A DNA stretch of 64,000 nucleotides from IMG/VR virus record IMGVR_UViG_3300042889_002176, positions 20,554 through 84,553 of that record. The stretch is one strand, 5' to 3'. The notes under the pieces were generated by a model. The model searched no databases and was not told the origin of the DNA. It was given only the letters and a program-made list of their open reading frames with translations. Shown here piece by piece: positions 26,549-61,251 of this stretch. The DNA is from a virus (taxonomy: Duplodnaviria > Heunggongvirae > Uroviricota > Caudoviricetes). Numbering within the stretch: the first letter of the stretch is position 1; every line of letters starts with the position of its first letter. The translations under genes were made by a program, and so were the position numbers.

Positions 26549-27461
26549 CATAGCAGACCTAGACGTGATATTTTTGACATTTGATGAACCCAAGAAAGAA
26601 GAATACTGGGCAATCATACGCAACATGGTGCCCTGGGCGCAGCGTGTGGACGGCGTTCGCGGGTCCGACGCAGCACACAAGGCCGCTGCGGCTGCTAGCA
26701 CTACAGAACGATTCATCCTGATCGACGGGGACAACATGCCTGACGCCAAATTCTTCAATCAGACCTTGGCATTTGCTACGGCAGATTATGAATCTGCTGT
26801 GTTCCGTTGGAGAGCGAGAAATGCCGTCAACGGACTCATGTATGGCAATGGTGGACTGAGCTCTTGGACAAAAACCTTTGTGAACAGCATGCGCACACAC
26901 GAAGCCACAGACGGCCGCACAGAAACACAGGTGGAGTTTTGTTTTGATCCCTTGTACTGGGCCATGCATGACTGCTACTCAACAACCTATCCCAATGGAT
27001 CTGCTTTTCATGCCTGGCGTGCAGGATTCCGCGAAGGTGTAAAGATGTGCCTGAATCGCGGAGCCAAGCCCACACTGGAAGAATTTAAGGATCGTGTGCA
27101 TCAACGCAATCTGGACCATCTCACCATCTGGCACAACATAGGTGCAGATGTTGACCACGGCTACTGGAGCATGGCCGGCGCAAGACAAGGCACCTACATG
27201 ACCATGCTCACAAACTGGGATCATACTCAAGTGCAGAACTTTGATGCACTGGCTGAACTGTGGAAGACTGTGGAATCCAGTGATCCAAGATTGCTAGCAG
27301 GCCGTGTGGCAGAAGATCTAGATCAACAACTGGATCTGCCAATGGCCATGCTGGAAGCAGAACAAAGCAAGTTTTTCAAGCACCACTACCGAAGCAACTG
27401 GCACAATGAAGGTATCATGGTCCGAGAAATGGATGTTATTCGAGCTCAAGAAGGTTGGTAA
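26535..27461 (+). CDS. putative glycosyltransferase, GT-A-like (LIDGDNMPD DxD motif)
   Basis: ATG at 26535 gives [19 protein letters not shown]...; the track's upstream start is a GTG. The protein carries [13 protein letters not shown]. Confidence 0.35.
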
Positions 27462-27462
27462 T

Positions 27463-37136: not shown

Positions 37137-37234
37137 ACTGGCTAAAAAAATTATGGGCAAGAATCTCCCTGGAATATCGTTACCGCAAGAAACTCAAAGA
37201 GCTACGCAAAAGAGACCCTTTCATTTATAAATGA
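37133..37234 (+). CDS. small basic peptide (33 aa), candidate coupled ORF
   Basis: MNWLKKLWARISLEYRYRKKLKELRKRDPFIYK has an SD (aaggaaa) upstream and ATGA overlaps with both neighbours. It is below the ORF-track threshold. Confidence 0.3.
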   Translation: MNWLKKLWARISLEYRYRKKLKELRKRDPFIYK

Positions 37235-45307: not shown

Positions 45308-46205
45308 CGTCTACTCGGGGATCAAAGCCCAGTATGGTTCTTGCACGATCGATGTTTAATGCGCCACGACTGGGAAAGTCTGCATCTCGATCTCGACATT
45401 CAATGGTACCAGAACCCACGATCTTCACAATCATTTCGGCTGCTTGTAACAAACTCACTGAATGTGATTTGGTAATGTTGTATGTTCGGTTGGCACTCAT
45501 GATTCTAGTTGCAGCAGCAACCACACCATCGGCAGCATCATCCACATAGGTAAAGTCCAGTGTTTCGCCTGCACCATTGACTTTCAGCACACCGCCACGC
45601 ATGGCGGTCAGCATGAACTTGGCCACCACACGATCCTCCACATCGAGCGGTCCGTACACAGCACTGGGACGAAGTATCACATACTCCATGCCGGTTCTGC
45701 GAGCATAATCTTTGACCAACCATTCACCGGCCAGCTTCATGATACCATACTGTCCTTGCGGCCTGCACTCGTCGTCCTCTAACACTTGATCTTCAAAGTC
45801 GCCGTAGACCATGCTGCTGGACATGTACACAAAGCGGCGGACCTGGTGTTTTTTGGCACTCTCAAGAAGATTGATTAGACCACGCATCATGACATCAGCA
45901 GCCAATGCAGGGTTGGCATTGACTACTTTTTGTCTGGGAAAGCTGGCACAGTGTATGATTACCTCTGGTGTCTCTTTACCAATAATGGCATCCATACGAT
46001 CTGCATTTTCAATGTAGTCGTGATAGTGACTACATGGTGCTAGTTTTTTAAGACGTTCACCAATCAAATAGTCAACTTCTTCACGCGGAATAATACCGTA
46101 GGTGGTTTGGCTATCCACAATGCTCACTGTGTCATTGCGCTGCTGCAAACGAGCCGCCACATTGTGCCCAATCAGCCCTAGTCCGCCGGTTATCAATACT
46201 TTCAT
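45237..46205 (-). CDS. NAD-dependent epimerase/dehydratase (extended SDR)
   Basis: ATG at 46205 (MKVLITGGLGLIGHNVAARL...) gives the GxxGxxG Rossmann motif; a YxxxK-type region (MSSSMVYGD) follows. Confidence 0.7.
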   Translation of the reverse strand: MKVLITGGLGLIGHNVAARLQQRNDTVSIVDSQTTYGIIPREEVDYLIGERLKKLAPCSHYHDYIENADRMDAIIGKETPEVIIHCASFPRQKVVNANPALAADVMMRGLINLLESAKKHQVRRFVYMSSSMVYGDFEDQVLEDDECRPQGQYGIMKLAGEWLVKDYARRTGMEYVILRPSAVYGPLDVEDRVVAKFMLTAMRGGVLKVNGAGETLDFTYVDDAADGVVAAATRIMSANRTYNITKSHSVSLLQAAEMIVKIVGSGTIECRDRDADFPSRGALNIDRARTILGFDPRVDVEQGFQNYYEWLSNSVYWSTKTV

Positions 46206-46477
46206 TGGTTGCCCCATTTCATTTGATACCATGTATACACTTTTTCATCCATCACAGTAAAGTCTCCGGCTCTGCTGTATTCCCAGTATCTTCCGTCTCG
46301 ATATGTTCCTGCGTGTCCAAAACTCGTGAGCAGCCAGTTTTCTGCAGCCATACCTGGCCACCCTTTTATCTTGTACAGTGTGATTGGCACAAACTGTTCA
46401 CCATCCCACACTTGTTTCTTCACAGGCGGCGGCAGTGTGACTTCAGCATCTACATATTCAATTTTTTGTGTCCACAT
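46202..46477 (-). CDS. hypothetical protein (91 aa)
   Basis: Internal ATG (MWTQKIEYVDAEVTLPPPVKK...) of the track ORF 46202..46591. Overlaps the next gene (ATGA). Confidence 0.4.
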   Translation of the reverse strand: MWTQKIEYVDAEVTLPPPVKKQVWDGEQFVPITLYKIKGWPGMAAENWLLTSFGHAGTYRDGRYWEYSRAGDFTVMDEKVYTWYQMKWGNQ

Positions 46478-49791: not shown

Positions 49792-50589
49792 TTACTTGTT
49801 CATCATGAGTGCGTTGAAGTTTGAGGGAACAACAATGGTCTGCACTTGACCGTTCTTGATACCTTCCGAAATGTTCAACATGGCCTGTGCCTGCATGAAC
49901 GCAATGCTTGCACCTGAGTTGTTGGCCAATGCTGCCATACGACGGCTTTCAGCTTCAGCGGTCTTGACTTCAACTTCCTTCTGCTTGAGTTCGTTTTTAC
50001 TGCGAACCAATGCATTGGCGCTTTCAACCACAGTGTCGGCTGGCACAATATTACGAATCAACACCTGACTGATAGTGATGCTACTGTCTAGTTTTTCTTC
50101 GGTAAGATTACGAACAATTTCTTCCTTGATAAAGGTTTCCATGTCACCACGAGCATCTGCCATGTCCAGGGCCTCGTACTTGCGAGCAGCCTTGTAGATG
50201 GCGTTACGAGCATTCTGTACAATGTAGTTGTACATCACATAGGTATCGCCCTTGAACTCAGCATGAAAGCTCTTGTTCTTGGTACTGTACAACTCTGCAA
50301 CACTTTGTGGGTTGATGTTATAAACAACCACGGCATCCACCTCTTTCATGGTGCTGTTGTCTTTGGCCACAGGAGTCATGTTGTCCAGAACTACATTGAC
50401 ATCCTTGATAGGGAATGTGAGCACTTCACCAATCAAGGTTTGATTGAACGAGCCTGGCAACAGTTCGCCAGATTTTACCTGTTTGTCAAAGCCCACACGC
50501 ACACCGACCTCGCCGGTTTCAATGCGAGTGCAAGCACTAGTAAGAGCCACAGCCGCGGCTACGATAGAAAGTTTAATAACACGATTCAT
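49792..50589 (-). CDS. SPFH/band-7 (prohibitin/HflC-like) lipoprotein
   Basis: Lipobox MNRVIKLSIVAAAVALTSAC. The body is SPFH-like, with a C-terminal coiled-coil/Ala-rich region (…KQKEVEVKTAEAESRRMAALANN…). Confidence 0.6.
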   Translation of the reverse strand: MNRVIKLSIVAAAVALTSACTRIETGEVGVRVGFDKQVKSGELLPGSFNQTLIGEVLTFPIKDVNVVLDNMTPVAKDNSTMKEVDAVVVYNINPQSVAELYSTKNKSFHAEFKGDTYVMYNYIVQNARNAIYKAARKYEALDMADARGDMETFIKEEIVRNLTEEKLDSSITISQVLIRNIVPADTVVESANALVRSKNELKQKEVEVKTAEAESRRMAALANNSGASIAFMQAQAMLNISEGIKNGQVQTIVVPSNFNALMMNK

Positions 50590-50686: not shown

Positions 50687-50863
50687 TTAAAAAATTACCA
50701 CAATTGCTGTCATCAGCATTACTGTTAGCAGTGAAACAATTATACTGTATCCTAGAGATTTTGTCAAGGACCAGCGTTCTTTTCCGTCTATCTTTCGCCA
50801 GGCCGCAATGGCAAAATGTATCACAGCAACCGAAACAAAAAATACCAACCAAAGTCTAATCAT
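50687..50863 (-). CDS. small two-TM membrane protein (~58 aa)
   Basis: MIRLWLVFFVSVAVIHFAIAAWRKIDGKERWSLTKSLGYSIIVSLLTVMLMTAIVVIF, preceded by the ttttggagttgaaga ATG motif. A further 29-aa TM peptide (MFSEVVGRLAYVALGIVIGINLFLFFGVI, ~50592-50681) lies downstream. Both are below the track cutoff. Confidence 0.35.
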   Translation of the reverse strand: MIRLWLVFFVSVAVIHFAIAAWRKIDGKERWSLTKSLGYSIIVSLLTVMLMTAIVVIF

Positions 50864-50945
50864 TCTTCAACTCCAAAATATTACTTGCCCAAGTAGTGAA
50901 CAACCACAGTGGGACCAATTACACACACAAGGACCAATAGTTCAA

Positions 50946-51179
50946 TCATGATTCAACTCCAAAATGTCTATTAACGCTATCTTGTATCTGTCTTGCTACC
51001 TGTTTCCAACCATCTTTAGCATTCTGAGCAATCCAATACTGTCTCCATTCATTGGTTATCTCATGAGCATATCCTCTAGCCATACTTGAACCTTCTGGCG
51101 GAGTCCATTCTCCACTCCACATAGGAATGGCGCGATCTGCCTTCCATAGAAATTCGTGTGAGTTACAATCAGTCGACAT
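50946..51179 (-). CDS. small protein, HFGVE-terminus family (divergent member)
   Basis: Ends ...DSVNRHFGVES with the conserved junction CATTTTGGAGTTGAATCATGA. Confidence 0.5.
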   Translation of the reverse strand: MSTDCNSHEFLWKADRAIPMWSGEWTPPEGSSMARGYAHEITNEWRQYWIAQNAKDGWKQVARQIQDSVNRHFGVES

Positions 51180-51198
51180 AGTTCAACTCCATTAACAA

Positions 51199-51366
51199 CT
51201 ATTTCCACACCTGCACAGACCAATAGAGTGGCCAGAAGAGTGATGAAACGAATGCTCCAACAGCATTCTCTCCGGCAAAGGTAGAATCTACCTGCTGATA
51301 GGCATGCCCGTAAGTAACTATGAATGCTGTAAAATACGCAGTGATCAATGCTATGATTTCCTTCAT
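51199..51366 (-). CDS. small membrane protein (55 aa)
   Basis: MKEIIALITAYFTAFIVTYGHAYQQVDSTFAGENAVGAFVSSLFWPLYWSVQVWK. I prefer this frame over the overlapping track ORF 51056..51373, which runs through the next gene. Confidence 0.35.
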   Translation of the reverse strand: MKEIIALITAYFTAFIVTYGHAYQQVDSTFAGENAVGAFVSSLFWPLYWSVQVWK

Positions 51367-51369
51367 TCT

Positions 51370-51585
51370 TCAACTCCGAAATTTATCTGCCACTGTGTAG
51401 TAGACGTCCATACCATCATCTATTGCCTGTAGCACTTCGTTTAACACATCCTGAACAATCAACTCGGCGAACTTTTTATAGGCTGCTTCAGATTCTTCGG
51501 CTGACATGGCTCGCGGCCACGGCGCACCGTCGAGATCCACATACAGTCCGGCCTCTGCACCAAGTTTTAGAATTCGTTCGTTCAT
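51370..51585 (-). CDS. small paralog-family protein (MNERI...KFAELIV...)
   Basis: MNERILKLGAEAGL...EAAYKKFAELIVQDVLNEVL... Confidence 0.55.
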   Translation of the reverse strand: MNERILKLGAEAGLYVDLDGAPWPRAMSAEESEAAYKKFAELIVQDVLNEVLQAIDDGMDVYYTVADKFRS

Positions 51586-51587
51586 TC

Positions 51588-51740
51588 TTAAAATCTCCGT
51601 ATAAAGTCTCGTGCTTTCTGATTACCCAGCAGGGCGAATACACATATCCACGAGACTATTACAACTCCTACTCCTGCTACTGTTATCCCCAAATACAACG
51701 GAGAAAGAATTACTAATAAAATAATCTCAGCCGGAGTCAT
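51588..51740 (-). CDS. small membrane protein (~50 aa)
   Basis: The internal ATG MTPAEIILLVILSPLYLGITVAGVGVVIVSWICVFALLGNQKARDFIRRF overlaps the upstream family gene stop (gaATGAct) and follows the ttttggagtagaaga motif. Confidence 0.35.
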   Translation of the reverse strand: MTPAEIILLVILSPLYLGITVAGVGVVIVSWICVFALLGNQKARDFIRRF

Positions 51741-52012
51741 TCTTCTACTCCAAAATGTGTTTGAATCTGGGCGGTACAATTCTTGGCGCCACCCCACATA
51801 CCTTCGTGAAGCATACGACCTGCATCAGTTACAAATTTACTATTAGTCATAGCATCAGCATCTGTAGCAACTTGCTCGCATTGTGCAATACATTCTGCTA
51901 CAATCAACTCGGCGAACTTTTCTTTATCAAAGTCCCAACACGCTCCGTCATGAGCCGTGGGATCAATGCGGGTAGTGGCCTGCTCAATCAGTAGTTGAAT
52001 TCGTTCGTTCAC
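51737..52012 (-). CDS. small paralog-family protein (MNERIQLLIEQA...KFAELIVAEC...THFGVEE)
   Basis: The family consensus is present at the N-terminus, middle and C-terminus. Confidence 0.55.
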   Translation of the reverse strand: MNERIQLLIEQATTRIDPTAHDGACWDFDKEKFAELIVAECIAQCEQVATDADAMTNSKFVTDAGRMLHEGMWGGAKNCTAQIQTHFGVEE

Positions 52013-52437
52013 TTTGTGATCTCCAGCCGGGTCAGTGCTGAGTCAAACTTTTTGTCTGCGGGCCAGTCTGCAAGATAACCGTTGTCCTTGTCAAACTGTT
52101 GTAAAAATTCATCCTCAGTAATCACTCTGTGTGACACAATCTGCTCGCCCAGGCACTCCTGGCTAAACTCTACAGCCTGTTCCATGGTCACAGTGTCTCT
52201 GGCCCACTCTTCCGGTGAATCTTCTGCCAGTTCCACAGCATAACGCATGCGATATGATACCAGTGCATCAACCAGCACAATCCTGGTCTTGGGCTTCTTG
52301 CTCATGGTCCAGGAACCATCTTTGTTATCAGTCCACACAACAGTGTCACCAATTTGCCAACCAACTGACTGCAACAGTTCGTCGCTGAGTGGCAGAATCA
52401 AATCGCCGTTGGCATCTTGCTCTAGTCTAACAATCAT
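52009..52437 (-). CDS. hypothetical protein with N-terminal AbrB/MazE-like swapped-hairpin motif
   Basis: MIVRLEQDANGDLILPLSDELLQSVGWQIGDTVVW resembles the SpoVT/AbrB/MazE DNA-binding fold. An acidic C-terminal half follows. Confidence 0.45.
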   Translation of the reverse strand: MIVRLEQDANGDLILPLSDELLQSVGWQIGDTVVWTDNKDGSWTMSKKPKTRIVLVDALVSYRMRYAVELAEDSPEEWARDTVTMEQAVEFSQECLGEQIVSHRVITEDEFLQQFDKDNGYLADWPADKKFDSALTRLEITK

Positions 52438-53711
52438 TTGTTTTTCTCCTCATCGTAGTAGGCATGCTGTCCCCAAGGTGGCACAATGGTTGTAGTGCCA
52501 TGCAAGATCCACACAGTGTCTGCGTAGTTCTCATCACCCCATGAACCAAACGGGTAGCCGTCTGTGAACACTACCAGGCGCTTGGGTTCAATCTCGTTCT
52601 CTTTCAGGTAGTTGAAGATACATTCAAAGTCTGTGCCACCACCACCCTTGATTTCGTAATCGCAGATGTCATCTAAGTTTTCACTGTCATACTGCACAGG
52701 GTTGTATGCTTCGGTATCAAATGTGACCACATGAATACGGTATGCTGGGAACGATTCCATGATGCCTTGAATCTCACCCAAGAAGTCTTTCAGCATGGTT
52801 TCGCTAATACTGCCAGATGCATCCAGAGCCACAGCAATATCAATCATGGGATCCAGTTTCATGCCAGGCATGACTGCATCCATGTGCCAGCCTTTACGGC
52901 TTGCTCGCATCCAGGTGTAGTCACTTTTGATAGTGCTCTCCAATTGCATACGCAACAGTTCACGCCAGTTCATTTGTGGCTCGGTGAGCTCCTGGATCAG
53001 TCGCTTGACACCTGCGGGCAAGTTGCCTGCTCCGTCCACTGTGGCAGCCGCTGCCAGCATGGCTTCCTTGATCTCATCCTTGATGGCTTGACGTTCTTCG
53101 GCAGTGAGTTTGGGACGACCTTTGCCTTTGCCATCTTGATCGTCGTCACTGTCGCTGTCGCCTTCACCATCCAGGTGCTCGTCGATCATTTGATCCAGCA
53201 ATTTGCCAATGTCAATCTTGTCTGCTTTTTCATACAAGATATCGTAGATTTCTTCGGAGCTCATGCCATCATACTTGGGATCATACAAACAAGGCACTGA
53301 CGTGATCTTTTCACCTACTTTGTGTTTGATTAGGTCTGCATTAACGCAAAAGTCATTGGCAATGTTAAACAGTTGAGGATCTCTATCACCCCTACGGCCA
53401 AAGTGATCATATACACAATGCAAGACTTCGTGGCCAAACAAGAATTCAATTTCTTTGGGACGCAACAGTTTGATGAAACGGCTGTTGTAATAGAAGTTTC
53501 TGCCGTCTGTTGCGGCGGTACTGCACCATTCGTCGGCATTGACCAGTTTCAATCTAGTGGCCAAGTTGCCAAAGAAACTGGCTTTCAACAGCAAGCCCAC
53601 ACGGGCAGTGATCAAAAGCTCACGTACTTCTCGATCAATTTTGGGATCAGTTTTGCCCAGCAAGTTGGCAAACTTCTTGTGGTCTTCTTTTGTAGCAGTA
53701 GTAGATGTCAT
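52434..53711 (-). CDS. VWA-domain protein with N-terminal HExxH metallopeptidase-like region (CobT-like / MoxR-partner)
   Basis: ATG at ~53711 (MTSTTATKEDHKK...) with an SD (aaagga); the track start 53789 is a GTG inside the tandem repeat. The HExxH motif is GHEVLHCVYDH. An acidic linker DGEGDSDSDDDQDG follows. The C-terminal VWA has a MIDAS motif DASGS. Confidence 0.65.
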   Translation of the reverse strand: MTSTTATKEDHKKFANLLGKTDPKIDREVRELLITARVGLLLKASFFGNLATRLKLVNADEWCSTAATDGRNFYYNSRFIKLLRPKEIEFLFGHEVLHCVYDHFGRRGDRDPQLFNIANDFCVNADLIKHKVGEKITSVPCLYDPKYDGMSSEEIYDILYEKADKIDIGKLLDQMIDEHLDGEGDSDSDDDQDGKGKGRPKLTAEERQAIKDEIKEAMLAAAATVDGAGNLPAGVKRLIQELTEPQMNWRELLRMQLESTIKSDYTWMRASRKGWHMDAVMPGMKLDPMIDIAVALDASGSISETMLKDFLGEIQGIMESFPAYRIHVVTFDTEAYNPVQYDSENLDDICDYEIKGGGGTDFECIFNYLKENEIEPKRLVVFTDGYPFGSWGDENYADTVWILHGTTTIVPPWGQHAYYDEEKNK

Positions 53712-53736
53712 GCGAGTCCTTTGTTGCTTATGTGTA

Positions 53737-53766
53737 ATTATAGCACAATAGCGATTAATGGTCAAA
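53737..53766 (-). promoter_or_regulatory. sigma70-like promoter P2 (TTGACC-17-TGCTATAAT)
   Basis: -10 and -35 read on the - strand; the spacer is exactly 17 nt. It lies ~25 nt upstream of the VWA ATG. Coordinates are +-2 nt. Confidence 0.5.
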
Positions 53767-53847
53767 TCAGCTATTGTTCTGACGTTCACGGTTTAGGTAG
53801 CGATTAATGGTCAAATCAGCTATTGTTCTGACGTTCACGGTTTAGGT
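53750..53847 (+). repeat. perfect 49-bp tandem duplication (2 copies)
   Basis: agcgattaatggtcaaatcagctattgttctgacgttcacggtttaggt occurs twice head-to-tail. It contains the -35 element of P2 and the last ~11 codons plus stop of gene 53816..54148. Coordinates are +-2 nt. Confidence 0.8.
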
Positions 53848-54148
53848 ACTTTAACTGGAACCAAGAGTGCGCAGCCTCTGTAAAAAAATCCAAGTGTACC
53901 TGCGGACTGTAGTGATGCCGTTTTTCCACAGAGACTAGCCCAGGATATATTACTGCGGCGGTTGAAATTGGTGCATAGTAGGGTTCTAGTCCTTGATGGT
54001 CACGGGCAGTAAAACCTAGCTCACGCCGCATTATGTGCCGCATGCGAATTGTGTTGCCATAAGTCTGAGTCAATTGATCTAGAATCTTTGTCCAGTCAGC
54101 AGGATCATGAAATACCACAAGATTCTTTTTTACAGTTACCTGTCCCAC
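53816..54148 (-). CDS. hypothetical protein (110 aa)
   Basis: GTG-start ORF; its C-terminus (...KYLNRERQNNS) is encoded in the upstream copy of the 49-bp tandem repeat. Confidence 0.4.
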   Translation of the reverse strand: MGQVTVKKNLVVFHDPADWTKILDQLTQTYGNTIRMRHIMRRELGFTARDHQGLEPYYAPISTAAVIYPGLVSVEKRHHYSPQVHLDFFTEAAHSWFQLKYLNRERQNNS

Positions 54149-54486
54149 TATTCAGTGCCTGAATGTGCCAGTTGAAAAAATGCCAGTTCTTTTTCACTAG
54201 CAAGATAGATACGATAGTCTTTGTATGCAACCGAATATGCCCAGTGCTGATTGATATCTTCATCCTGTACCGCAACAGCAGGATTAAGCATTTTACAACG
54301 CTTGATAGCGGTACGAGTTTCCACATCCTGCCCCCAGCCCCAGGTGCGATTCATCCAGCGACGAGCTCGGTCAAAATCCAACACACCAGTGCTATGTCCC
54401 CAGGTATTTTTGGAAAACTCTAGCATATAGTTGAAGCTCGCGCTATGGCTGAAGCGGCGGTCCATATCGGTTACTTGATATTTCAT
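54148..54486 (-). CDS. hypothetical protein (112 aa)
   Basis: ORF. Confidence 0.45.
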   Translation of the reverse strand: MKYQVTDMDRRFSHSASFNYMLEFSKNTWGHSTGVLDFDRARRWMNRTWGWGQDVETRTAIKRCKMLNPAVAVQDEDINQHWAYSVAYKDYRIYLASEKELAFFQLAHSGTE

Positions 54487-54725
54487 TTGTAACTGCTGCT
54501 CTGCAACATGTAGGGTTTATGAACTTCGTAGTATTTCTTAAAAATATTTTCGTAGTCTTGCCAGTCACAATGTGCCCATTCTTCTTTATAGTCGATTCGG
54601 GTTGACTGTAATCTTGACCAAAATAGTTTTTTATTGTGTCCAGTCACCTGCGACCGTGCCTTGGATTCAGTATCGTAATATCTCAAAATCTCGCCAGATT
54701 TTTTAGTATACACTATCCATCCCAT
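54483..54725 (-). CDS. hypothetical protein (80 aa)
   Basis: An ORF with ATGA coupling. Confidence 0.45.
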   Translation of the reverse strand: MGWIVYTKKSGEILRYYDTESKARSQVTGHNKKLFWSRLQSTRIDYKEEWAHCDWQDYENIFKKYYEVHKPYMLQSSSYK

Positions 54726-54781
54726 ACTCTGGTCCTTGTGATAAGAAACACCGGGGCTGTGATTAAACAGCCCCGATCAAT

Positions 54782-55867
54782 TTAGGTACTAGCAGCCAAA
54801 ATGTACTTGCCAAAGCGTTGATGGAACTCGTCAAAGTTTTTCAGCTTGGTAGGCATCATGGGCAAGTTATAAGTAGTAAGGGCAATTCTAGCACCCATCA
54901 CAGTCAACTCTGTTTCAAAGTTTTTCATCATGTAGCCCAGGAAGTGGTCGGCCATGTCCTGAAACTTTTTGTCCTCCACCTTGTTCTCCACAGCGGCCTT
55001 GAGCTCGTAGCACATGGAGATCACCAGGCTGTACATGGCACTGACTTCTTTGACGTCAAGAGTGGTAACCTTGCCACTCAAGATATCTGCAGGGTTGGGC
55101 ATGCGTCCGGCAATCTTGCGATGTGCCATGAACTTCACAGCAAGACCTTCGCCCACAGTGCCTGCAATCAGGTTGGTCATGGTGTTGTCGTCGCTGTCAT
55201 CTTCTTGCAGGAGCTCGCTTACAAAACTCCAGGTACGCGGTGTAGCAAACGCACGTGAGCTGGACTTAGAATCAAAGTCGTACAGGTCCTGTTTAGCAAA
55301 GCTCAAGTAGCCAACCACGTCCTTGTGAACTTTGTTGGTTACAGCCCACTCTTGCCAACTAGCAAAATCCACCTTCATCTCTTGGTGCAAGAAACGGTTT
55401 GCCAGCGGAGTAGGCATGCGGTAAGTAACGCCCTTGTCGCTTTCCCTGTTGCCTGCGGCAACCATAACAACATTTTTAGGCAGGCGATATTTGCCAATGC
55501 GTCGATTCAGAATCAACTGATATGCGGCACTTTGAACGCTGGGTGCGGCTGAATTCAACTCGTCCAGGAACAGGACCACAATGGGATAGTCCTTGGCCAT
55601 TTCTTCGTCGGGCAATTCCACAGGAGGTGCCCAATCCATCTTGCCAATGTCCTTGTTGTAGAACGGAATGCCACGAATGTCGGTGGGTTCCATCTGGCCC
55701 AGGCGCAGATCAATCATTAGGCCACCTAGCTCTTTGGTGATATTTTCCACCAGTTCGCTTTTGCCAATACCCGGAGGACCCCACAGGAACAACGGACGCT
55801 GGACGCGGAATGCTTTGAGCAGGCTCTTGCGGGCTTGTGCAGAAGTAACAGTGCGGGTATCTGACAT
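54782..55867 (-). CDS. MoxR-family AAA+ ATPase (CobS-like)
   Basis: Walker A LWGPPGIGKSE; Walker B VVLFLDELN; sensor region VMVAAGNRE. 361 aa, the typical size of cyanophage/pelagiphage cobS homologs. Confidence 0.7.
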   Translation of the reverse strand: MSDTRTVTSAQARKSLLKAFRVQRPLFLWGPPGIGKSELVENITKELGGLMIDLRLGQMEPTDIRGIPFYNKDIGKMDWAPPVELPDEEMAKDYPIVVLFLDELNSAAPSVQSAAYQLILNRRIGKYRLPKNVVMVAAGNRESDKGVTYRMPTPLANRFLHQEMKVDFASWQEWAVTNKVHKDVVGYLSFAKQDLYDFDSKSSSRAFATPRTWSFVSELLQEDDSDDNTMTNLIAGTVGEGLAVKFMAHRKIAGRMPNPADILSGKVTTLDVKEVSAMYSLVISMCYELKAAVENKVEDKKFQDMADHFLGYMMKNFETELTVMGARIALTTYNLPMMPTKLKNFDEFHQRFGKYILAAST

Positions 55868-55900
55868 GGAAATTTCCTTGGTGGAGTGGTTGAAAATTGT

Positions 55901-55930
55901 ATTATACGTGATCTGTGATTTTTAGTCAAA
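55901..55930 (-). promoter_or_regulatory. sigma70-like promoter P3 (TTGACT-17-CGTATAAT)
   Basis: Exact 17-nt spacer. A 27-nt leader with an SD (aaggaaa) precedes the MoxR/cobS-like gene. Confidence 0.5.
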
Positions 55931-56092
55931 ATCAAGTTCTGGCCGAAAACGTTGTGTAAGCTCGCGAATCATGTGAGCAAACACTTGTTGACCCTGATCT
56001 TCTGCCTGGTCTGGTTCTGGTTCTGGTTCTGGGGCATAAGGCATGTTGTCCGGTTCCTCTATAGGGGCAAAATAATCTTTAATGCGACTCAT
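55922..56092 (-). CDS. small acidic protein (56 aa; PEPEPEP repeat)
   Basis: Internal ATG MSRIKDYFAPIEEPDNMPYAPEPEPEPDQAEDQGQQVF... Confidence 0.4.
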   Translation of the reverse strand: MSRIKDYFAPIEEPDNMPYAPEPEPEPDQAEDQGQQVFAHMIRELTQRFRPELDFD

Positions 56093-56364
56093 GCTACTAC
56101 CTTCAGCATGTTGGCAGGAACCCGCCACAGGCCCCCGCCTGTGTCTACAGTCACATATTTGATGGCAATCTTTTGCACAAAACCACGCATGACTCGACCA
56201 GTTTTAGCACTGGTGAATTCCACGTTGCTCTGCAATGTCAAGGCCCGTTTGTTTTTCTGGGCTAGTTGAGCCCGAGCATATTTCACAGCATCAATGATGC
56301 TGGTGAGTTGATCGTTGGTAAAATTACCTGCGATGATCTCAGTGTTGATGCTTTGAATGCTCAT
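56089..56364 (-). CDS. hypothetical protein (91 aa)
   Basis: ORF with an SD (aggaga) and the consensus promoter upstream. Confidence 0.5.
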   Translation of the reverse strand: MSIQSINTEIIAGNFTNDQLTSIIDAVKYARAQLAQKNKRALTLQSNVEFTSAKTGRVMRGFVQKIAIKYVTVDTGGGLWRVPANMLKVVA

Positions 56365-56395
56365 GTTCTCTCCTGTTTTGTTTTGCTATACATGT

Positions 56396-56425
56396 ATTAT
56401 AGCAGAAGAGGTATTTTAAGTCAAA
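56396..56425 (-). promoter_or_regulatory. sigma70-like promoter P4 (TTGACT-17-TGCTATAAT)
   Basis: Exact spacing. It is followed by a ~30-nt leader with an SD. Confidence 0.55.
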
Positions 56426-56437
56426 TATTGCCTAGTG

Positions 56438-56569
56438 TTAGGCCATTGTAACAGCAATAAAAGCCAGCATGAACACCAAGACGGCTCCCACAATGGGCAA
56501 CACAATGTGTATGTGTTCAACCACATCGTCCACTGGATCTTTTTCTGGTTCTTTATTCTCCGGGTTCAT
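56438..56569 (-). CDS. tiny membrane peptide (43 aa)
   Basis: MNPENKEPEKDPVDDVVEHIHIVLPIVGAVLVFMLAFIAVTMA; below the track cutoff. Confidence 0.3.
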   Translation of the reverse strand: MNPENKEPEKDPVDDVVEHIHIVLPIVGAVLVFMLAFIAVTMA

Positions 56570-56656
56570 GTTCTTCTTTCTTGTACATGTCCCATAGTAC
56601 TGCTCCCACTACGGTTACAATAATTATGGTAGAAATAATTTCATCAACGGTCATGG

Positions 56657-57103
56657 TCATGCTCCGTAGTAGGTTTCTTTGTCTTTTTTGGCCAGTTTGG
56701 GATCATTCCAAACATTGCGCTGATTCCATTCTTGAATTTTGGCCAGGCGTTGTTCTTCAGTAAGTTCATCACAGCGACTGCTTCGATCAGGCATGCGTAG
56801 ATATTCCACAGTGCCTTGTCTCACAGTGACTTGGCCAGGGTTATATGTTTTCCTGAACACTTGCATGACATAGCCAGTGCTGAATGCCATGGTGATTAGG
56901 GCAATGTGACCAATCATGTTGTAGCCAATGGTCATGAGTTCACCAATGTAAAGACCAAAGGCCAGGCACCAGAAACAGGCCAACACAATGCTGGCAAAGT
57001 ATTTCAAATAAGTTGGTGCATGTCTTAGACTGTTGACATTGGGATTGAGCCCGTCTCTGAACGCCTTGAACAAGATGTAGATAAATTTCAGCACTGCAAA
57101 CAT
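56657..57103 (-). CDS. integral membrane protein (148 aa, 3-4 TM segments)
   Basis: A hydrophobic ORF: ...YFASIVLACFWCLAFGLYIGELMTIGYNMIGHIALITMAFSTGYV... Confidence 0.5.
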   Translation of the reverse strand: MFAVLKFIYILFKAFRDGLNPNVNSLRHAPTYLKYFASIVLACFWCLAFGLYIGELMTIGYNMIGHIALITMAFSTGYVMQVFRKTYNPGQVTVRQGTVEYLRMPDRSSRCDELTEEQRLAKIQEWNQRNVWNDPKLAKKDKETYYGA

Positions 57104-57121
57104 GATTTCTCCCGGTGAGTT

Positions 57122-57151
57122 ATTGTAATATTACTTGATCAAAATGTCAAT
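57122..57151 (-). promoter_or_regulatory. sigma70-like promoter P5 (TTGACA-17-TACAAT)
   Basis: Perfect -35, 17-nt spacer and a 5/6 -10. The leader carries an SD (gggaga). Confidence 0.45.
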
Positions 57152-57361
57152 GATGTTTGGTTCATTGTGCCGGGTCACCACTGCACGGTTGTCATACACT
57201 TCAATACTGGCGTGATAAACCCTGGTGACCGTGGCACCATTGGGATAAGTGGTCTGTTGCCAACTTTCCTGTTTGACAACACCTTTGCCCACAGTGGCAA
57301 TGGGCAACACGCCAGTGAAGCTGTTGGCAAATTGAGTTACGGGCATGATGGAGTCACTCAT
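57131..57361 (-). CDS. hypothetical protein (76 aa)
   Basis: ORF. Confidence 0.45.
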   Translation of the reverse strand: MSDSIMPVTQFANSFTGVLPIATVGKGVVKQESWQQTTYPNGATVTRVYHASIEVYDNRAVVTRHNEPNIIDILIK

Positions 57362-57576
57362 TCTTCAACTCCGTATTCTGCTTTTAACGCATCCATTGCT
57401 AGACGAATCTTTTCGGCCACAGGCTGATATTTCACAGGATGGATGGGATGGTAGACCCATTCCTGGCCACCCCAGATCTTGCTACCGTTCAATAGTTTGT
57501 CCATTTCTGCCAGAATTTCAAATCTAGGATCAGCCCAGAACTTGAATTTATTATCAGGAACGATGGGCGTATTCAT
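57358..57576 (-). CDS. small protein, HFGVE-terminus family (divergent; ends AEYGVEE)
   Basis: MNTPIVPDNKF...LKAEYGVEE; shares the junction motif. Confidence 0.5.
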   Translation of the reverse strand: MNTPIVPDNKFKFWADPRFEILAEMDKLLNGSKIWGGQEWVYHPIHPVKYQPVAEKIRLAMDALKAEYGVEE

Positions 57577-57788
57577 TCTTCAACTCCAAAATGTTCTCTA
57601 ATCAAATCACCCTGTGTCCGGCCACCTTCGGCAAGTATCCAATCAACTCGGCCAGCACATTCCCGCACAATCAATTCGGCGAACTTTTCTCTATCAAAGT
57701 TAGCATATGAACTTGTATAACCTTGTGGACCAACCATTTCTACAATTGATGTAGCCTGTTCAGCAAGTTCTCGAATTCGTTGGTTCAT
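57573..57788 (-). CDS. small paralog-family protein (MNQRIRELAEQA...KFAELIVREC...EHFGVEE)
   Basis: Full family consensus. Confidence 0.55.
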   Translation of the reverse strand: MNQRIRELAEQATSIVEMVGPQGYTSSYANFDREKFAELIVRECAGRVDWILAEGGRTQGDLIREHFGVEE

Positions 57789-58075
57789 TTCAAAAGCCTT
57801 TCAAACACAGGTGCATGATCAGGAATGTTGTCTGCATCACCAGGCTGTGCCACCACAAAGCCCAAGCCCAACAATGCGTCAATCTCTGTGGGTGTGCAGT
57901 TGGGCCAGCCGCGATGAACAAAAATCCTACGGGTCAGGTTGTCCTGGGAATAATAAATCCGGTAGCTGGCTCGAGGCGCATTGACTGCGGCTGCAATCAC
58001 AGACTGTGATATCTCGTCATCCCATGTGTCGGTCACAGTGGCTCGAGTTTGCTCATACACGAAATCTTGCATCAT
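57785..58075 (-). CDS. hypothetical protein (96 aa)
   Basis: ORF. Confidence 0.45.
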   Translation of the reverse strand: MMQDFVYEQTRATVTDTWDDEISQSVIAAAVNAPRASYRIYYSQDNLTRRIFVHRGWPNCTPTEIDALLGLGFVVAQPGDADNIPDHAPVFERLLK

Positions 58076-58091
58076 GGTTCAACTCTCATGC

Positions 58092-58487
58092 TTAATACAA
58101 CACAGGTTCCACGGTGTGCTCATTCCGTAGAATTTTAAACACTTCTTCGTGCTGGGTATAGATCAGTCCCTGTCGTTCAAGGATTGCTCGTCGAACCACA
58201 GCATCAAGCTGACACCACTGGTCGACAGCTTGGTAACTGCCACGTGCTTCGGCAGGAAAGTCGTTGTGTATCCAGCCGGTCAAGGCCTTGAAGGCTTCTA
58301 CACTGTTCATGGAATGGCTGGATCCTATTGCCCCACGCCAGTCATTGGCCAGCACCGCATAGAAACAACTACCCGGACTATATCCATACACCAGATAGTT
58401 CAGCATGGGGTCGGCAAAGTCTCTGGGCACCGACCAACGCTCACAGGATTCTTTTAGTAGATTCCAGCTGTATACAGTTATGTTCAC
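58092..58487 (-). CDS. hypothetical protein (131 aa)
   Basis: ORF. Confidence 0.45.
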   Translation of the reverse strand: MNITVYSWNLLKESCERWSVPRDFADPMLNYLVYGYSPGSCFYAVLANDWRGAIGSSHSMNSVEAFKALTGWIHNDFPAEARGSYQAVDQWCQLDAVVRRAILERQGLIYTQHEEVFKILRNEHTVEPVLY

Positions 58488-58490
58488 GAT

Positions 58491-58754
58491 TCAACTCCCA
58501 AATGCTTTTTCAATTGGCTCGTAATACTCAACCCCAAACCTGGCTTTGATCCGTTGAATTTCTGGTCTTTGCATTGGTCCATCACCCACTGCATCCATAC
58601 ATTCCTGCACAATCAACTGGGCGAACTTTGAATCGTATCGCTGTTTATACATTCCTTGATTGTAAGGGTTGTGTGGATTGTAATCTGGTTGTCGAGCATA
58701 TTCACAAGCATAGCAATGAGCCTGTTCGGCAAGTTGTTGAATTTGTTTGTTCAT
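58491..58754 (-). CDS. small paralog-family protein (MNKQIQQLAEQA...KFAQLIVQEC...ARFGVEY...)
   Basis: Internal ATG at 58754. A ~57-aa GTG-start ORF with an N-terminal TM (ITLFIWTVVGYAG), ~58770-58917, fills the gap to the upstream member and overlaps via ATGA. Confidence 0.5.
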   Translation of the reverse strand: MNKQIQQLAEQAHCYACEYARQPDYNPHNPYNQGMYKQRYDSKFAQLIVQECMDAVGDGPMQRPEIQRIKARFGVEYYEPIEKAFGS

Positions 58755-58917
58755 TTGGTCTTCAGGCAACGGTGCCTGTCCTGTAGGTTCATGGATCGCA
58801 CAGCCTCCTCACAGAGCGCGACTGTCTCAAACTGAGCCAAAGCCCGCCAGTCCATTTTAGTACTGATGCTATTGTTCATACCAGCGTAGCCGACCACAGT
58901 CCAGATAAACAGTGTGA

Positions 58918-59157
58918 TCACGATTCAACTCCGAAATGTTCTTCAATATCATTGATTGCTGTGGACATTGCTTCATCCACATTCCATTCATCTTCGATAG
59001 CCAGGTCTCTGTTAACAGATACCAGTTCCACACATTCCTGCACAATCAACTGGGCGAATTTTTCAATCATCTCTGGACTCATACTGTACCAGTCTGCCTT
59101 GTTCCAGTTGTCAGTGACCCCAGCTTGTTTTAAAAGTTCTTGAATTCGTGGGTTCAT
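58918..59157 (-). CDS. small paralog-family protein (MNPRIQELLKQA...KFAQLIVQEC...EHFGVES)
   Basis: Family consensus. Confidence 0.55.
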   Translation of the reverse strand: MNPRIQELLKQAGVTDNWNKADWYSMSPEMIEKFAQLIVQECVELVSVNRDLAIEDEWNVDEAMSTAINDIEEHFGVES

Positions 59158-59269
59158 TCTGCAACTCCGTGATATTTCAATTGTGGTCTACGCCACAGTA
59201 ACCATCCAATATACAGACCCTGTAGCCATCCAATTGCTAGACACATTAGTAATACCCAATCGTTCTGTG

Positions 59270-59500
59270 TCATAGTTCAACTCCAAAATGTTTCTTAATC
59301 AACTCCACAGCCTGCCCACGGCTGATCATATCACGCAACATAGGACTCAATGCTACACCGCATTCCTGCACAATCATGTCAGCGAACTTTTCAAGTTCAT
59401 CTTCCCAACACTCGGCAAATGCTCTAACAGGTTTTTCTGTTGGGTCATAGGTAAACTCAATGTTTGCTTTTTCAGCAAGTTGTCGAATTCGTTGGTTCAT
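59270..59500 (-). CDS. small paralog-family protein (MNQRIRQLAEKA...KFADMIVQEC...KHFGVEL)
   Basis: Internal ATG at 59500 matches the family N-terminus. Confidence 0.5.
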   Translation of the reverse strand: MNQRIRQLAEKANIEFTYDPTEKPVRAFAECWEDELEKFADMIVQECGVALSPMLRDMISRGQAVELIKKHFGVEL

Positions 59501-59703
59501 TCCGCAACTCCGAAATGTTCTTGAATCTTGGCATGGATCAACCATGTATATTCACATTCTTCTGTGTCGGGCGTGTGATACTTGGCAATATCCATACATT
59601 TCTTAACAATCAACTCGGCGAACTTTTCATTGTCAAAATGTAGTTGGCCTTCTGGACGCTTGTCCCAGCATTGTTCAGCCAACTCTTTAATTCGTGTGTT
59701 CAT
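59497..59703 (-). CDS. small paralog-family protein (MNTRIKELAEQ...KFAELIVKKC...EHFGVAE)
   Basis: Internal ATG at 59703, with a TGATG overlap with the upstream member. Confidence 0.5.
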   Translation of the reverse strand: MNTRIKELAEQCWDKRPEGQLHFDNEKFAELIVKKCMDIAKYHTPDTEECEYTWLIHAKIQEHFGVAE

Positions 59704-60080
59704 TAGTCTTGCCATTCTGATGGATGAAGTTTTGGGATATATCCGTATCTGCTGGCAACCTTTTTATTCTCTGCGGCAATAAATTCAGCTGCTTCTTGAT
59801 CCCAGTCTGACTGTGGTTTTGCAACGTCAAAATGGTCTGCAATTGACCGGGCCACCCAGGCCACTGCCGCATGTTGTGCAGGCTCATCTTCCAACATGTC
59901 ATCCACCCGGGCAACCTGGGCCAAACATTCAGCCACAATCAGTTCAGCGAACTTTTTGTTATACACATCACGATATTCTTCCATACATTGTTCGGTGTTA
60001 TGCACTCGTTCATAAATTCGCTTTTCATCTAGGGCATAGTTCCTAGCCTCAACGACAAGTTCTCGAATTCGTGTGTTCAT
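59703..60080 (-). CDS. paralog-family protein, long form (125 aa; MNTRIRELVVEA...KFAELIVAEC...DHFDVAK + C-terminal extension)
   Basis: Family N-terminus and core, with an extra ~40 aa C-terminal tail. Confidence 0.5.
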   Translation of the reverse strand: MNTRIRELVVEARNYALDEKRIYERVHNTEQCMEEYRDVYNKKFAELIVAECLAQVARVDDMLEDEPAQHAAVAWVARSIADHFDVAKPQSDWDQEAAEFIAAENKKVASRYGYIPKLHPSEWQD

Positions 60081-60307
60081 CATTCAACTCCGAAATGTTT
60101 TTCAATCTGATATACAGCAAATTCCGTTCCCATCTTCCACATTCTTTCATATTCATCTTCAGCAGGAACTTCGGCAGCCTCAGTATTAATAACTGATATA
60201 CATTTCTGAACAATCAACTGGGCGAACTTTTCTTTATCAAAAAGCCAACCATCACTGTTATTGTAAGATGTAGCCTGTTCGGCAAGTTGTTGAATTCGTT
60301 TGTTCAT
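60080..60307 (-). CDS. small paralog-family protein (MNKRIQQLAEQA...KFAQLIVQKC...KHFGVE)
   Basis: Family consensus. Confidence 0.55.
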   Translation of the reverse strand: MNKRIQQLAEQATSYNNSDGWLFDKEKFAQLIVQKCISVINTEAAEVPAEDEYERMWKMGTEFAVYQIEKHFGVE

Positions 60308-60504
60308 GCATTTTCTCCTGTGTAGCCCCAGAACTTGGTGTAGGATTCGCCCACCTTGTATCTGCCATTGTCTCGCAAAACAGTTTGAGCATCCAGGCGT
60401 ATGACCAGATCGCCTTTGTTTATCTCTCCAACCGCCCAGGCTGGCACTCGGACCACAACATCAATACGCCGCTTTATCAAGGTGTAGGGATGGGTCACTT
60501 TCAC
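60304..60504 (-). CDS. hypothetical protein (66 aa)
   Basis: ORF inserted between family members, coupled at both ends. Confidence 0.4.
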   Translation of the reverse strand: MKVTHPYTLIKRRIDVVVRVPAWAVGEINKGDLVIRLDAQTVLRDNGRYKVGESYTKFWGYTGENA

Positions 60505-60719
60505 GATTCGACTCCAAAGTGTTCTTTTATAACCTTGCCGATTTCGTAATCATCATCAGCAGTTAACCCGACCTCGCGTCTAAAATCAATATTAGCACAT
60601 TCCCGCACAATCAACTCGGCGAACTTTGCTTGGTCAACCTTAGAAAACACCCATACACGGTTTTCGGGATCAACTGCTTTAGTTGCCTGTTTCAGTAGTT
60701 CTCGAATTCGTTCGTTCAT
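60501..60719 (-). CDS. small paralog-family protein (MNERIRELLKQA...KFAELIVREC...EHFGVES)
   Basis: Family consensus. Confidence 0.55.
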   Translation of the reverse strand: MNERIRELLKQATKAVDPENRVWVFSKVDQAKFAELIVRECANIDFRREVGLTADDDYEIGKVIKEHFGVES

Positions 60720-60964
60720 TTTGCAACTCCAAAAGCGTCAGCGTCAGCATCATCCAGTCGTTCAGCAATGTTCAGGAAGTTTTCGCAGTATTCTCGCATG
60801 AGATCGTAACTGCGCTTTTCGTCACGGCTCAGTTCCAGTTCAGCCATGGTCTCGGCTGCATCCATGGCCTCCAGGCACTGACGCAGATCGTTTGCGGTGT
60901 TTTGAAACATGCAGTAGCTCATGTTCATATTGCTCTCCTTAGGCAAATTCGTAAAATTTAACAC
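60716..60964 (-). CDS. hypothetical acidic protein (82 aa; ends ...DADADAFGVAK)
   Basis: ORF; the true start may be an internal Met (MNMSYC...). Confidence 0.4.
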   Translation of the reverse strand: MLNFTNLPKESNMNMSYCMFQNTANDLRQCLEAMDAAETMAELELSRDEKRSYDLMREYCENFLNIAERLDDADADAFGVAK

Positions 60965-61221: not shown

Positions 61222-61251
61222 ATTATAGCATTTTGGTGATTTATCGTCAAC
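61222..61251 (-). promoter_or_regulatory. sigma70-like promoter P6 (TTGACG-17-TGCTATAAT)
   Basis: Exact 17-nt spacer with an extended -10. Confidence 0.55.

Follow-up and report, generated by a model that had tools for sequence, protein, structure and literature searches.

We describe a family of small proteins encoded in several copies on a 64,000-nucleotide stretch of a tailed-phage record (Caudoviricetes; IMG/VR record IMGVR_UViG_3300042889_002176, positions 20,554 to 84,553), referred to here as the window. The window encodes ten members, every one on the minus strand, which fall into two groups (51370-52012 and 57573-60719; Table 1). Eight members make up the second group, within a single run of overlapping genes, and the family as a whole occupies two operons of translationally coupled genes. 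Members combine three conserved blocks (an N-terminal block, MNERIxELAEQA; a central block, EKFAELIVREC; and a tail block, I..HFGVEE) with two variable segments, V1 between the first and second blocks and V2 between the second and third. The proteins are about 65-95 amino acids (aa) long and acidic, with a median isoelectric point of 4.8 and a net charge of -6. No signal peptide or membrane segment was evident when the ten window sequences were read by eye, with no predictor run, and the members are therefore probably cytoplasmic.

The window is 100% identical to a JGI metagenome contig (3300042892 Ga0453668_0000013, 189,773 bp) and is also identical to contigs of three further assemblies; the sequence is therefore no one-off assembly product. 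Loci L001-L003 are 100% identical to the window and uninformative about cassette gain or loss, and only L004 differs. The 12-kb region of the family has no DNA-level match among 50,697 phage records (megablast), and an Rfam scan of window positions 46-64 kb returned no RNA family.

Membership was assessed with a hidden Markov model (HMM) built from an alignment of the ten members (alignment A1) and scored on all window open reading frames (ORFs) of at least 35 aa. The ten members score at E = 1e-18 to 1e-28, and the next-best window ORF reaches E = 0.05. Residues M1, N2, I5, L8, K35, F36, A37, I40, V41 and F67 of A1 are invariant among them. An earlier note on this DNA, made by a model from the letters alone, had listed about 12 paralogues with a three-block consensus, interleaved with unrelated tiny genes, and had allowed that the similarity might stem only from a shared ribosome-binding site. 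Ten of the listed paralogues stand, but 50946 and 57358 drop out (Table 1): aligned to the family with hhalign, they match over their last 16 aa only (probability 20%) and last 14 aa only (6%), respectively, so that the ribosome-binding-site account holds for these two genes and fails for the ten members. The consensus is likewise sound for the N-terminal and central blocks, which are present in all ten, but not throughout for the tail, since 51370 lacks the HFGVE end and the tail of 59703 has decayed. The interleaving with tiny genes is borne out by the gene layout.

Several members depart from the standard gene structure. The true starts of 59270, 59497, 59703 and 58491 are internal ATG codons before N(Q/T/K)(R/Q)I rather than the longest-ORF starts. 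Member 51370 contains the tail motif (TTCGGAGTTGAAGAATG) read in another frame, which yields the end ...DKFRS-stop. In 59703 the tail motif is decayed (GGAG to GATG, HFDVAK) and the stop is lost, with read-through into about 40 extra residues; the V2 module of this member ends normally, with ADHFGVEE, in proteins P0026, P0032 and P0038 from other loci. The two tail blocks of 58491 read IKARFGVE and then IEKAFG, the second being frameshifted by one extra G that leaves the Shine-Dalgarno-like site intact. The stop of 60080 overlaps the start of 59703, and 60501 has a GTGA overlap with the next start codon.

Table 1. Family members and surrounding features, with positions in the window (E values are from the family HMM; pLDDT, predicted local distance difference test; pTM, predicted template modelling score).
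Feature	Position	Strand	Remarks
Family member, 71 aa	51370..51585	-	E = 1e-18
Family member, 91 aa	51737..52012	-	GTG start, long V2; E = 3e-28; AlphaFold pLDDT 92.8, pTM 0.78
Family member, 71 aa	57573..57788	-	modelled representative; E = 2e-27; AlphaFold pLDDT 93.0, pTM 0.74
Family member, 87 aa	58491..58754	-	two tail blocks; E = 7e-25
Family member, 79 aa	58918..59157	-	E = 6e-25
Family member, 76 aa	59270..59500	-	from internal ATG (MNQRIRQLAEKA...); E = 2e-28
Family member, 68 aa	59497..59703	-	from internal ATG (MNTRIKELAEQ...); E = 1e-25; alignment A1
Family member, 125 aa	59703..60080	-	E = 3e-26
Family member, 75 aa	60080..60307	-	ends HFGVE-stop; E = 2e-25
Family member, 72 aa	60501..60719	-	MNERIRELLKQA ... 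AKFAELIVREC ... KEHFGVES-stop; E = 2e-27
Non-member, 77 aa	50946..51179	-	only the family tail (RHFGVES-stop); E = 0.054
Non-member, 72 aa	57358..57576	-	ends AEYGVEE-stop, encoded by TACGGAGTTGAAGAATGA; E = 41
Unrelated gene (70-82 aa)	60716..60964	-	end ..AFGVAK-stop encodes Shine-Dalgarno-like site for 60501; E = 18
Unrelated 39-aa hydrophobic protein	59154..59273	-	tiny ORF with membrane-like segment; end ..YHGVAE-stop encodes Shine-Dalgarno-like site for 58918
Tiny ORF, hydrophobic membrane-like segment	50687-50863	-	58 aa
Tiny ORF, hydrophobic membrane-like segment	50880-50948	-	22 codons
Tiny ORF, hydrophobic membrane-like segment	51199-51366	-	
Tiny ORF, hydrophobic membrane-like segment	51588-51740	-	
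Tiny ORF, hydrophobic membrane-like segment	58751-58921	-	
Stand-alone junction motif	50864..50880	-	TTTGGAGTTGAAGA before ATG; non-coding DNA after 22-codon hydrophobic ORF
Sigma-70-like promoter, TTGACG-17-TATAAT	61222..61250	-	heads overlapping-gene run 61196 to 57131, eight members
Sigma-70-like promoter, TTGACC-17-TATAAT	53737..53765	-	upstream of DUF2201 gene and operon with members 51737 and 51370
Perfect TTGACA-17-TATAAT site	50767-50739	-	inside 58-aa ORF 50687-50863
Band_7/SPFH protein	49792-50589	-	beside/between the two member groups
DUF2201 (von Willebrand/metallopeptidase-like) protein	52434-53789	-	beside/between the two member groups
MoxR-like AAA ATPase	54782-55867	-	beside/between the two member groups

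The tail block doubles as a signal in the DNA. HFGVEE-stop is encoded by CATTTYGGAGTTGAAGAATGA, which gives the gene that follows a Shine-Dalgarno-like site and a stop/start overlap of the form ATGA; the nucleotide form of HFGVE(E/S)-stop is CATTTYGGAGTTGAANNATGA. GGAG precedes the start codon of the next gene by 7-8 nt, this codon usually overlapping the stop as ATGA or GTGA, and GGAGUUGA agrees at 7/8 positions with GGAGGUGA, which we take to be the extended Shine-Dalgarno consensus. The 12-mer TTYGGAGTTGMA occurs 13 times in the window where chance would give 1.8, and every occurrence is a minus-strand one within 50866-60733. The motif is kept where it does not encode FGVE, namely in 51370, in the second copy of 58491 and in the non-coding DNA at 50864-50880, and on other contigs unrelated genes end in ...FRS-stop or ...RWS-stop on the same nucleotides. 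Across 298 family hits, 237 show an NTGA overlap with the next start codon, whatever gene follows. In a stricter same-strand subset, GGAGTTGA occurs in 122/158 family genes with a stop/start overlap (77%) versus 17/497 non-family genes (3.4%), and we rejected the idea that it is the generic Shine-Dalgarno site of these phages. We also rejected cassettes with the junction motif on both flanks, the motif lying upstream in only 21/197 members that are preceded by a non-family gene: the tail motif is a 3'-end feature, not a symmetric flank. AlphaFold confidence falls in the last residues, and we read I..HF as part of the fold and GVEE mostly as the translated footprint of a translational-coupling signal that the family carries along.

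A blastn search with the junction sequence matched the Rheinheimera Barba phages, which share no more than a similar ribosome-binding site (..EHLGGEE-stop) after an unrelated protein. In Rheinheimera phage Barba1A (L098, MK719701.1), an unrelated cysteine-rich small protein at 2779-3024 ends ...YEHLGGEE-stop, with CATTTAGGAGGTGAAGAATGA as the underlying DNA. A cultured phage thus has a comparable Shine-Dalgarno site encoded in a gene's tail, again with an ATGA overlap, and C-terminal 'motifs' can therefore arise from ribosome-binding sites alone.

Structure prediction, one of the checks suggested with the earlier note, returned a compact fold for both representatives modelled (pLDDT 93.0 and 92.8). 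AlphaFold places helices at residues 3-11, 33-47 and 59-67 and strands at 13-19 and 25-31 in 57573, and helices at 3-11, 30-56 and 63-87 and strands at 13-15 and 26-28 in 51737. The two models share one topology despite their different modules, and the last residues are of low confidence in each. The N-terminal block corresponds to predicted helix 1, the central block to the start of helix 2 and I..HF to the end of helix 3, while V1 is modelled as a variable beta-hairpin and V2 as the distal tip of the helix 2/helix 3 hairpin. In these models the conserved blocks form a helical base from which V1 and V2 project.

V1 and V2 vary independently of one another. The comparisons that follow extend beyond the window to metagenome assemblies, and their sample of homologues is biased towards relatives of member 57573. 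The 173 genes parsed from the loci show no correlation between identity in V1 and identity in V2 (r = 0.003); a single module is common to 107 pairs, 58 of them with V1 shared at 70% or more and V2 unrelated and 49 with the reverse. A set of 428 distinct proteins comprises 226 V1 types and 265 V2 types in 371 distinct combinations. Nearly all recurrent types in this set have at least two partners (54/55 for V1, 58/64 for V2), and 20 four-gamete squares are present. Assembly chimeras at the 33-nt blocks do not explain the pattern: with the count restricted to combinations seen in two or more non-identical sequences, 13 partners remain for one V1 type and 4 for one V2 type.

At the DNA level, similarity is lost and regained at block edges. 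Window member 57573 matches locus L008 only from the central block to the tail and locus L005 only from the ATG to the central block. Contig L102 joins V1 of 59270 to V2 of 59497, and V1 of 57573 to V2 of 58918, all of which sit in separate genes in the window, and the V1 and V2 of 59270 are each found in other combinations elsewhere. Contig L004 is identical to the window up to 58932 and unrelated beyond, the break falling exactly at GGAGTTGAATCGTGA, the tail motif of member 58918 (58932/58933). Natural variants include P0123, with two central blocks, and the fused doublets P0142 and P0264; together with the duplicated tail of 58491 and the stop loss of 59703, these are apparent by-products of recombination. 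Within a locus, 1/283 pairs of members share a V1 module, and likewise a V2 module, which makes the arrays collections of distinct combinations rather than recent tandem duplicates; the corresponding figure for different loci is 0.4-0.5%. We infer that recombination is the cause of the mosaicism.

The segment of L004 that replaces everything upstream of window position 58932 in this related phage variant (L004 1-1076; JGI 3300042887) contains a fragment of a second von Willebrand-like gene, followed by two genes unrelated to it; the final one terminates in ...EDGVES-stop on the same junction sequence. Two other candidates were discarded. P0234 (676 aa, 10 matched stretches) proved to be an unrelated repeat protein rather than a fused array. 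A diversity-generating retroelement target, whose variable region would depart from a template repeat at adenines only, was rejected on the grounds that V1 and V2 differ by whole replacement and length change and are unalignable between types; no dedicated search for a reverse transcriptase was made.

The blocks are conserved in their codons as well as their residues. In 291 distinct genes, the fixed codons are ATG AAC GAA CGA ATT .. GAA CTT in the N-terminal block, GAA AAG TTC GCC GAG TTG ATT ... GAA TGT in the central block and CAT TTY GGA GTT GAA GAA TGA in the tail. The blocks use AAG, GAG, GCC and CGA where V1 and V2 of the same genes use AAA, GAA, GCT and AGA (chi-square p = 1e-30 to 1e-63, values inflated by sequence relatedness). 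Over 14,717 gene pairs in which V1 and V2 are both unrelated, identical residues have the identical codon in 74% of cases in the N-terminal block and 76% in the central block, compared with 45-50% predicted by codon usage and 47% at chance residue identities inside V1 and V2. This is as high as inside recently shared modules (70-76%). Either selection holds block stretches of 20-35 nt identical or frequent exchange homogenises them, and in either case the blocks supply the homology at which exchange occurs. As for base-pairing between the N-terminal and central blocks, a comparison by eye showed only a 6-bp complement.

The variable middles, for which the earlier note had suggested a test of selection, turn out to be real modules. 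Copies of shared V1 modules differ at a proportion of 0.48 of synonymous sites (pS) and 0.085 of nonsynonymous sites (pN), and copies of shared V2 modules at 0.37 and 0.063, which corresponds to pN/pS of 0.17-0.18. Differences between module copies are thus mostly synonymous, and V1 and V2 are therefore functional coding sequence under purifying selection.

Database searches placed the family almost wholly outside annotated sequence space. Pfam-A gave no match above its curated cut-off (best E = 0.002, 18 bits against a 25-bit cut-off), PHROGs v4 no significant match (best E = 0.03), NCBIfam 20 and PADLOC 2.0 no credible match, and a PDB profile search nothing significant (best E = 0.45). Searches of the PDB with the family models found no significant fold match, and the structural neighbours in BFVD are only uncharacterised proteins of uncultured Caudovirales. 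Literature searches by motif and by concept turned up no account of the family. The search of metagenomes and phage genomes that the earlier note had called for nevertheless yields thousands of homologues, nearly all of them from uncultured viruses. A profile search of 5.8 billion clustered proteins found at least 7,977 clusters (90% identity) among 8,000 scored candidates; no Pfam domain occurs in any of them, and such names as they bear are arbitrary and automatically assigned. An HMM search run exhaustively over 1.84 billion representatives (50% identity) returned 7,980 at E <= 1e-3 and 1,176 at E <= 1e-10.

More than 500 loci were confirmed in IMG/VR, on contigs of 4.5-364 kb, and copy number reaches 14 per 20 kb in the 80 IMG/VR loci retrieved. 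Among 185,579 species genomes we found only 13 loci, each on a short contig in a metagenome-assembled genome of a lake taxon; these include Aquiluna, Rhodoferax and Lake Erken and La Plata bins. Nearly all carriers are uncultured, apparently freshwater viral contigs with usually several copies each, the habitat being taken from record titles. The only tblastn match among the phage records is a weak member in an unannotated stretch of the uncultured Manatee Spring virus MW202520; a match to gp46c of Acidovorax phage Aval was not significant, and this protein was rejected as a relative.

Sequence context points to early expression. Eleven minus-strand sites, spread over window positions 39922-63533, agree with the sigma-70-type promoter consensus in 11 or more of its 12 positions, and none lies on the plus strand; shuffled sequences gave 1.2 (maximum 5); nine of the 11 lie within 46.8-63.5 kb, and the spacer is mostly 17 nt. 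No promoter or terminator-like site was found between members, and promoter-like sites stand at operon heads only. Host-type promoters precede both operons, and the members are therefore probably made early in infection; early transcription by host RNA polymerase is suggested, with T4- and T5-type phages as an analogy. At other loci, the large neighbours are mostly on the same strand and include DNA ligase, ribonucleotide reductase, dCMP deaminase, a 5'-3' exonuclease, UvdE, phosphatases and Band_7. Neither virion genes nor Radical_SAM were among the families matched by at least two of 150 neighbour proteins from about 75 other loci.

Other features of the surroundings deserve mention. The MoxR-like ATPase of the window is 51% identical to its counterpart in PA5oct-type jumbo Pseudomonas phages. 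At two other viral loci Band_7 is again one of the family's neighbours, and in MW202796 a degenerate member has a stomatin-like gene next to it. Immediately before the DUF2201 gene, in overlap with the promoter-like site at 53765-53737, the window has a 49-bp perfect tandem duplication (2.0 copies; 53749-53848). Six tiny ORFs (22-58 aa) are interleaved with the family. A pairing of members with small membrane proteins was rejected: across other loci the next gene is hydrophobic in 32/279 cases, which is no enrichment over a background of 16%. Elsewhere in the window, a single ORF of 4,886 aa (6059-20719, plus strand) has only weak Pfam matches, to FG-GAP_2 and CBM_5_12, and may be a giant phage fibre or adhesin.

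Taken as a whole, we favour the proposal, at a probability of roughly 0.55, that the family is an early-expressed repertoire of small acidic binding proteins that is diversified by recombination at DNA-conserved segments of a common frame. Within this proposal, we have high confidence in the family itself, its fold, its mosaicism and its DNA-level conservation. The three frame blocks would act as short patches of homology, and recombination there would swap V1, V2 or whole genes, both among paralogues and among co-infecting phages, to build a combinatorial repertoire. Each gene end (GGAGTTGAAGAATGA) would encode the floppy tail GVEE-stop while giving the following gene a Shine-Dalgarno-like site and an overlapping start, and the ten different V1/V2 combinations of this phage, in two operons behind host-type promoters, would be produced early. 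The members may then be inhibitors or adaptors whose two variable surfaces recognise variable host targets, most plausibly host defence or takeover factors. A binding or anti-host function, suggested by architecture and context, is a tentative element of the proposal. The earlier note's suggestion of a hypervariable early-protein family accordingly gains from the real modules, the coupled operons, the sigma-70-type promoters and the DNA-metabolism neighbours, while its suggestion of host takeover or anti-defence is still conjecture.

Several points weigh against this proposal. The promoters are matches to a consensus and the structures are predictions, and the binding and anti-host roles are read from architecture and context. 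Codon conservation in the blocks could stem from repeated gene conversion rather than from selection for recombination, and the codon statistics treat related sequences as independent, ignoring phylogeny. The mosaic signal is owed in part to metagenome assemblies and to sampling tilted towards one member's relatives. Module sharing within loci is about the same as between loci, which shows neither recent local duplication nor selection for non-redundancy. Finally, no cultured phage among the 50,697 records carries the family, whether searched by tblastn with a member and the consensus or by blastn with the junction.

An alternative that we consider unlikely is that the members are small regulators or adaptors whose invariant base binds one conserved partner, such as host RNA polymerase or a phage enzyme, with V1 and V2 only tuning the interaction. 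The invariance of the base across the family fits this idea, as do the small size and acidity of the proteins, which many phage polymerase modulators share. It leaves unexplained, however, why there should be ten different combinations in one genome and hundreds of module types under purifying selection.

The genes could also be selfish or near-neutral cassettes, with conserved ends and a built-in ribosome-binding site that permit harmless insertion between genes and no function as a repertoire. The tail does give a Shine-Dalgarno-like site to any downstream gene, scars and fusions are present, and homology breaks at junctions. Yet the conserved fold and the pN/pS near 0.17 of V1 and V2 alike point to selection at the protein level, several intact copies are retained in thousands of lineages, and the scarcity of the motif upstream of members that follow a non-family gene means that there is no symmetric flank. 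We regard this explanation as improbable.

Stronger doubts attach to the idea that the members are packaged in the virion as internal proteins, in which the N-terminal helix would be a capsid-targeting signal cut by the prohead protease and the remainder would be injected against host nucleases. The IPI, IPII and IPIII proteins of phage T4 are tandem, polymorphic small proteins with a shared capsid-targeting N-terminus, and at least one of them counters host restriction. The present family likewise forms tandem, polymorphic sets, and its conserved N-terminus of about 12 residues includes ELAE, which resembles the (L/I)xE motif of T4-type prohead proteases. The N-terminal block contains IRE and LAE and is predicted to be a helix packed into the fold; no sequence relationship to PHROG families was found. 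Against this idea, the central and tail blocks, which the T4 proteins lack, are equally conserved, the T4 internal proteins are basic whereas the members are acidic, and the genes stand behind sigma-70-type promoters among DNA-metabolism genes rather than in a head-gene module. We think this reading very unlikely.

The earlier note had speculated that the family might be precursor-like, in view of the radical-SAM enzymes encoded elsewhere in the window. The corresponding idea, that the members are precursor peptides modified by radical-SAM/SPASM enzymes into ribosomal natural products, fared poorly and now seems far-fetched. Prochlorosin-type families with a Nif11-like leader have many small paralogues per genome, each with a conserved and a hypervariable part, and the multi-copy members with their conserved N-terminus and variable parts recall them. 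Six window ORFs between 27406 and 36106 match Radical_SAM, two of them also SPASM, and another radical-SAM gene lies about 6 kb past member 60501 in the parent contig (L001 1-1286). In prochlorosin-type families, though, the variable core is C-terminal and enzyme-modified, whereas the members have a conserved C-terminus (I..HFGVEE), internal variable parts that are structural elements, and a predicted compact domain (pLDDT 93) made up of defined helices and a hairpin. Purifying selection acts on entire modules; the radical-SAM cluster, which occupies the opposite strand, ends at 36106 and so at least 15 kb short of member 51370; Radical_SAM does not recur beside the family at the other loci surveyed; and many carriers are small contigs. 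As for the similarity being an artefact of a shared ribosome-binding site or junction, with no protein family behind it, the tail block is indeed a Shine-Dalgarno-like motif with an ATGA overlap, is kept out of frame and in non-coding DNA, and is all that 50946 and 57358 share with the family, but the (nearly) invariant N-terminal and central blocks of ten paralogues and thousands of homologues and the confidently predicted common fold refute this for the ten members and leave it virtually no credence outside the two 'divergent' genes.

The radical-SAM genes form a run of seven ORFs (27406-36106, plus strand), of which six have the Radical_SAM match; in both SPASM-bearing ORFs the SPASM domain sits N-terminal to the radical-SAM core. 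Together with 37231-38712 (plus strand) and 44198-46232 (minus strand), which bring in a carbamoyltransferase after the run and, nearby, a DegT aminotransferase and a NAD-dependent sugar epimerase/dehydratase, it has the look of an island for sugar or cofactor modification and has no connection with the small-protein family.

The proposed repertoire has parallels in described systems. In the gp38 adhesins of T2/T6-type phages, conserved glycine-rich motifs separate hypervariable segments that are swapped among phages, so that specificity determinants come together in new combinations (Trojet et al., 2011, PMC3157838). Both cases pair conserved structural-core motifs with independently exchanged variable segments, here the N-terminal, central and tail blocks with V1 and V2. 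The gp38 protein, however, is a virion adhesin that binds cell-surface receptors, whereas the present family is multi-copy, helical, acidic, probably cytoplasmic and encoded in early-type operons. We find no homology to gp38: the blocks are helical rather than glycine-rich, and there is no PHROGs or Pfam match and no significant PDB fold match.

The PeSL cassettes in hyperplastic regions of T4-type phages are intergenic units of a promoter and a stem-loop terminator (Arbiol et al., 2010, PMC2839356; PMC4122927). There, as here, short conserved expression motifs double as recombination sites and shuffle small non-essential genes of early regions. PeSLs move whole genes, whereas the anchors in the present family are the stop/start junction and two coding blocks, so that the shuffled units are gene parts; members meet the next gene in a stop/start overlap, where there is neither a sigma-70 promoter nor a stem-loop terminator. 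The logic of gp38 adhesins and PeSL cassettes is the closest described, here applied to a multi-copy, probably cytoplasmic family and to gene parts. Diversification by recombination with coding cassettes in a setting of conflict is also described for polyimmunity loci of polymorphic toxin systems (Zhang et al., 2012, PMC3482391). Those systems are bacterial and toxin-linked, whereas the family described here is found on lytic-type phage contigs with no toxin partner and no sequence relationship to them. Polyimmunity loci also include tandem arrays of diversified small proteins.

A broader possibility, which we hold to be speculative and rather doubtful, is that freshwater phages keep a community-wide, recombination-driven repertoire of two-slot binding proteins that tracks host defence or takeover targets. 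The nucleotide-conserved frame would then serve as the recombination signal for hundreds of V1 and V2 modules, of which each phage would carry about 2-14 combinations. If this is true, the family would be a viral counterpart of combinatorial receptor diversity, located in the cytoplasm rather than on the virion. Should the members inhibit host defences, their modules would amount to a collection of catalogued binding specificities, and the frame, at about 70 aa, would offer engineered binders a small scaffold of natural origin.

The family carries a caution for annotation, in that what looks like a conserved protein motif at the C-terminus can be the imprint of the following gene's ribosome-binding site. 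Its conserved blocks could be used as universal primer sites for amplifying the repertoire from lake viromes. With about 8,000 clusters (50% identity) that have no annotation, solved fold or cultured carrier, it represents a sizeable portion of viral dark matter, and its readable rule of three DNA-conserved blocks and two reassorting modules makes the diversification of early accessory genes in phages testable.

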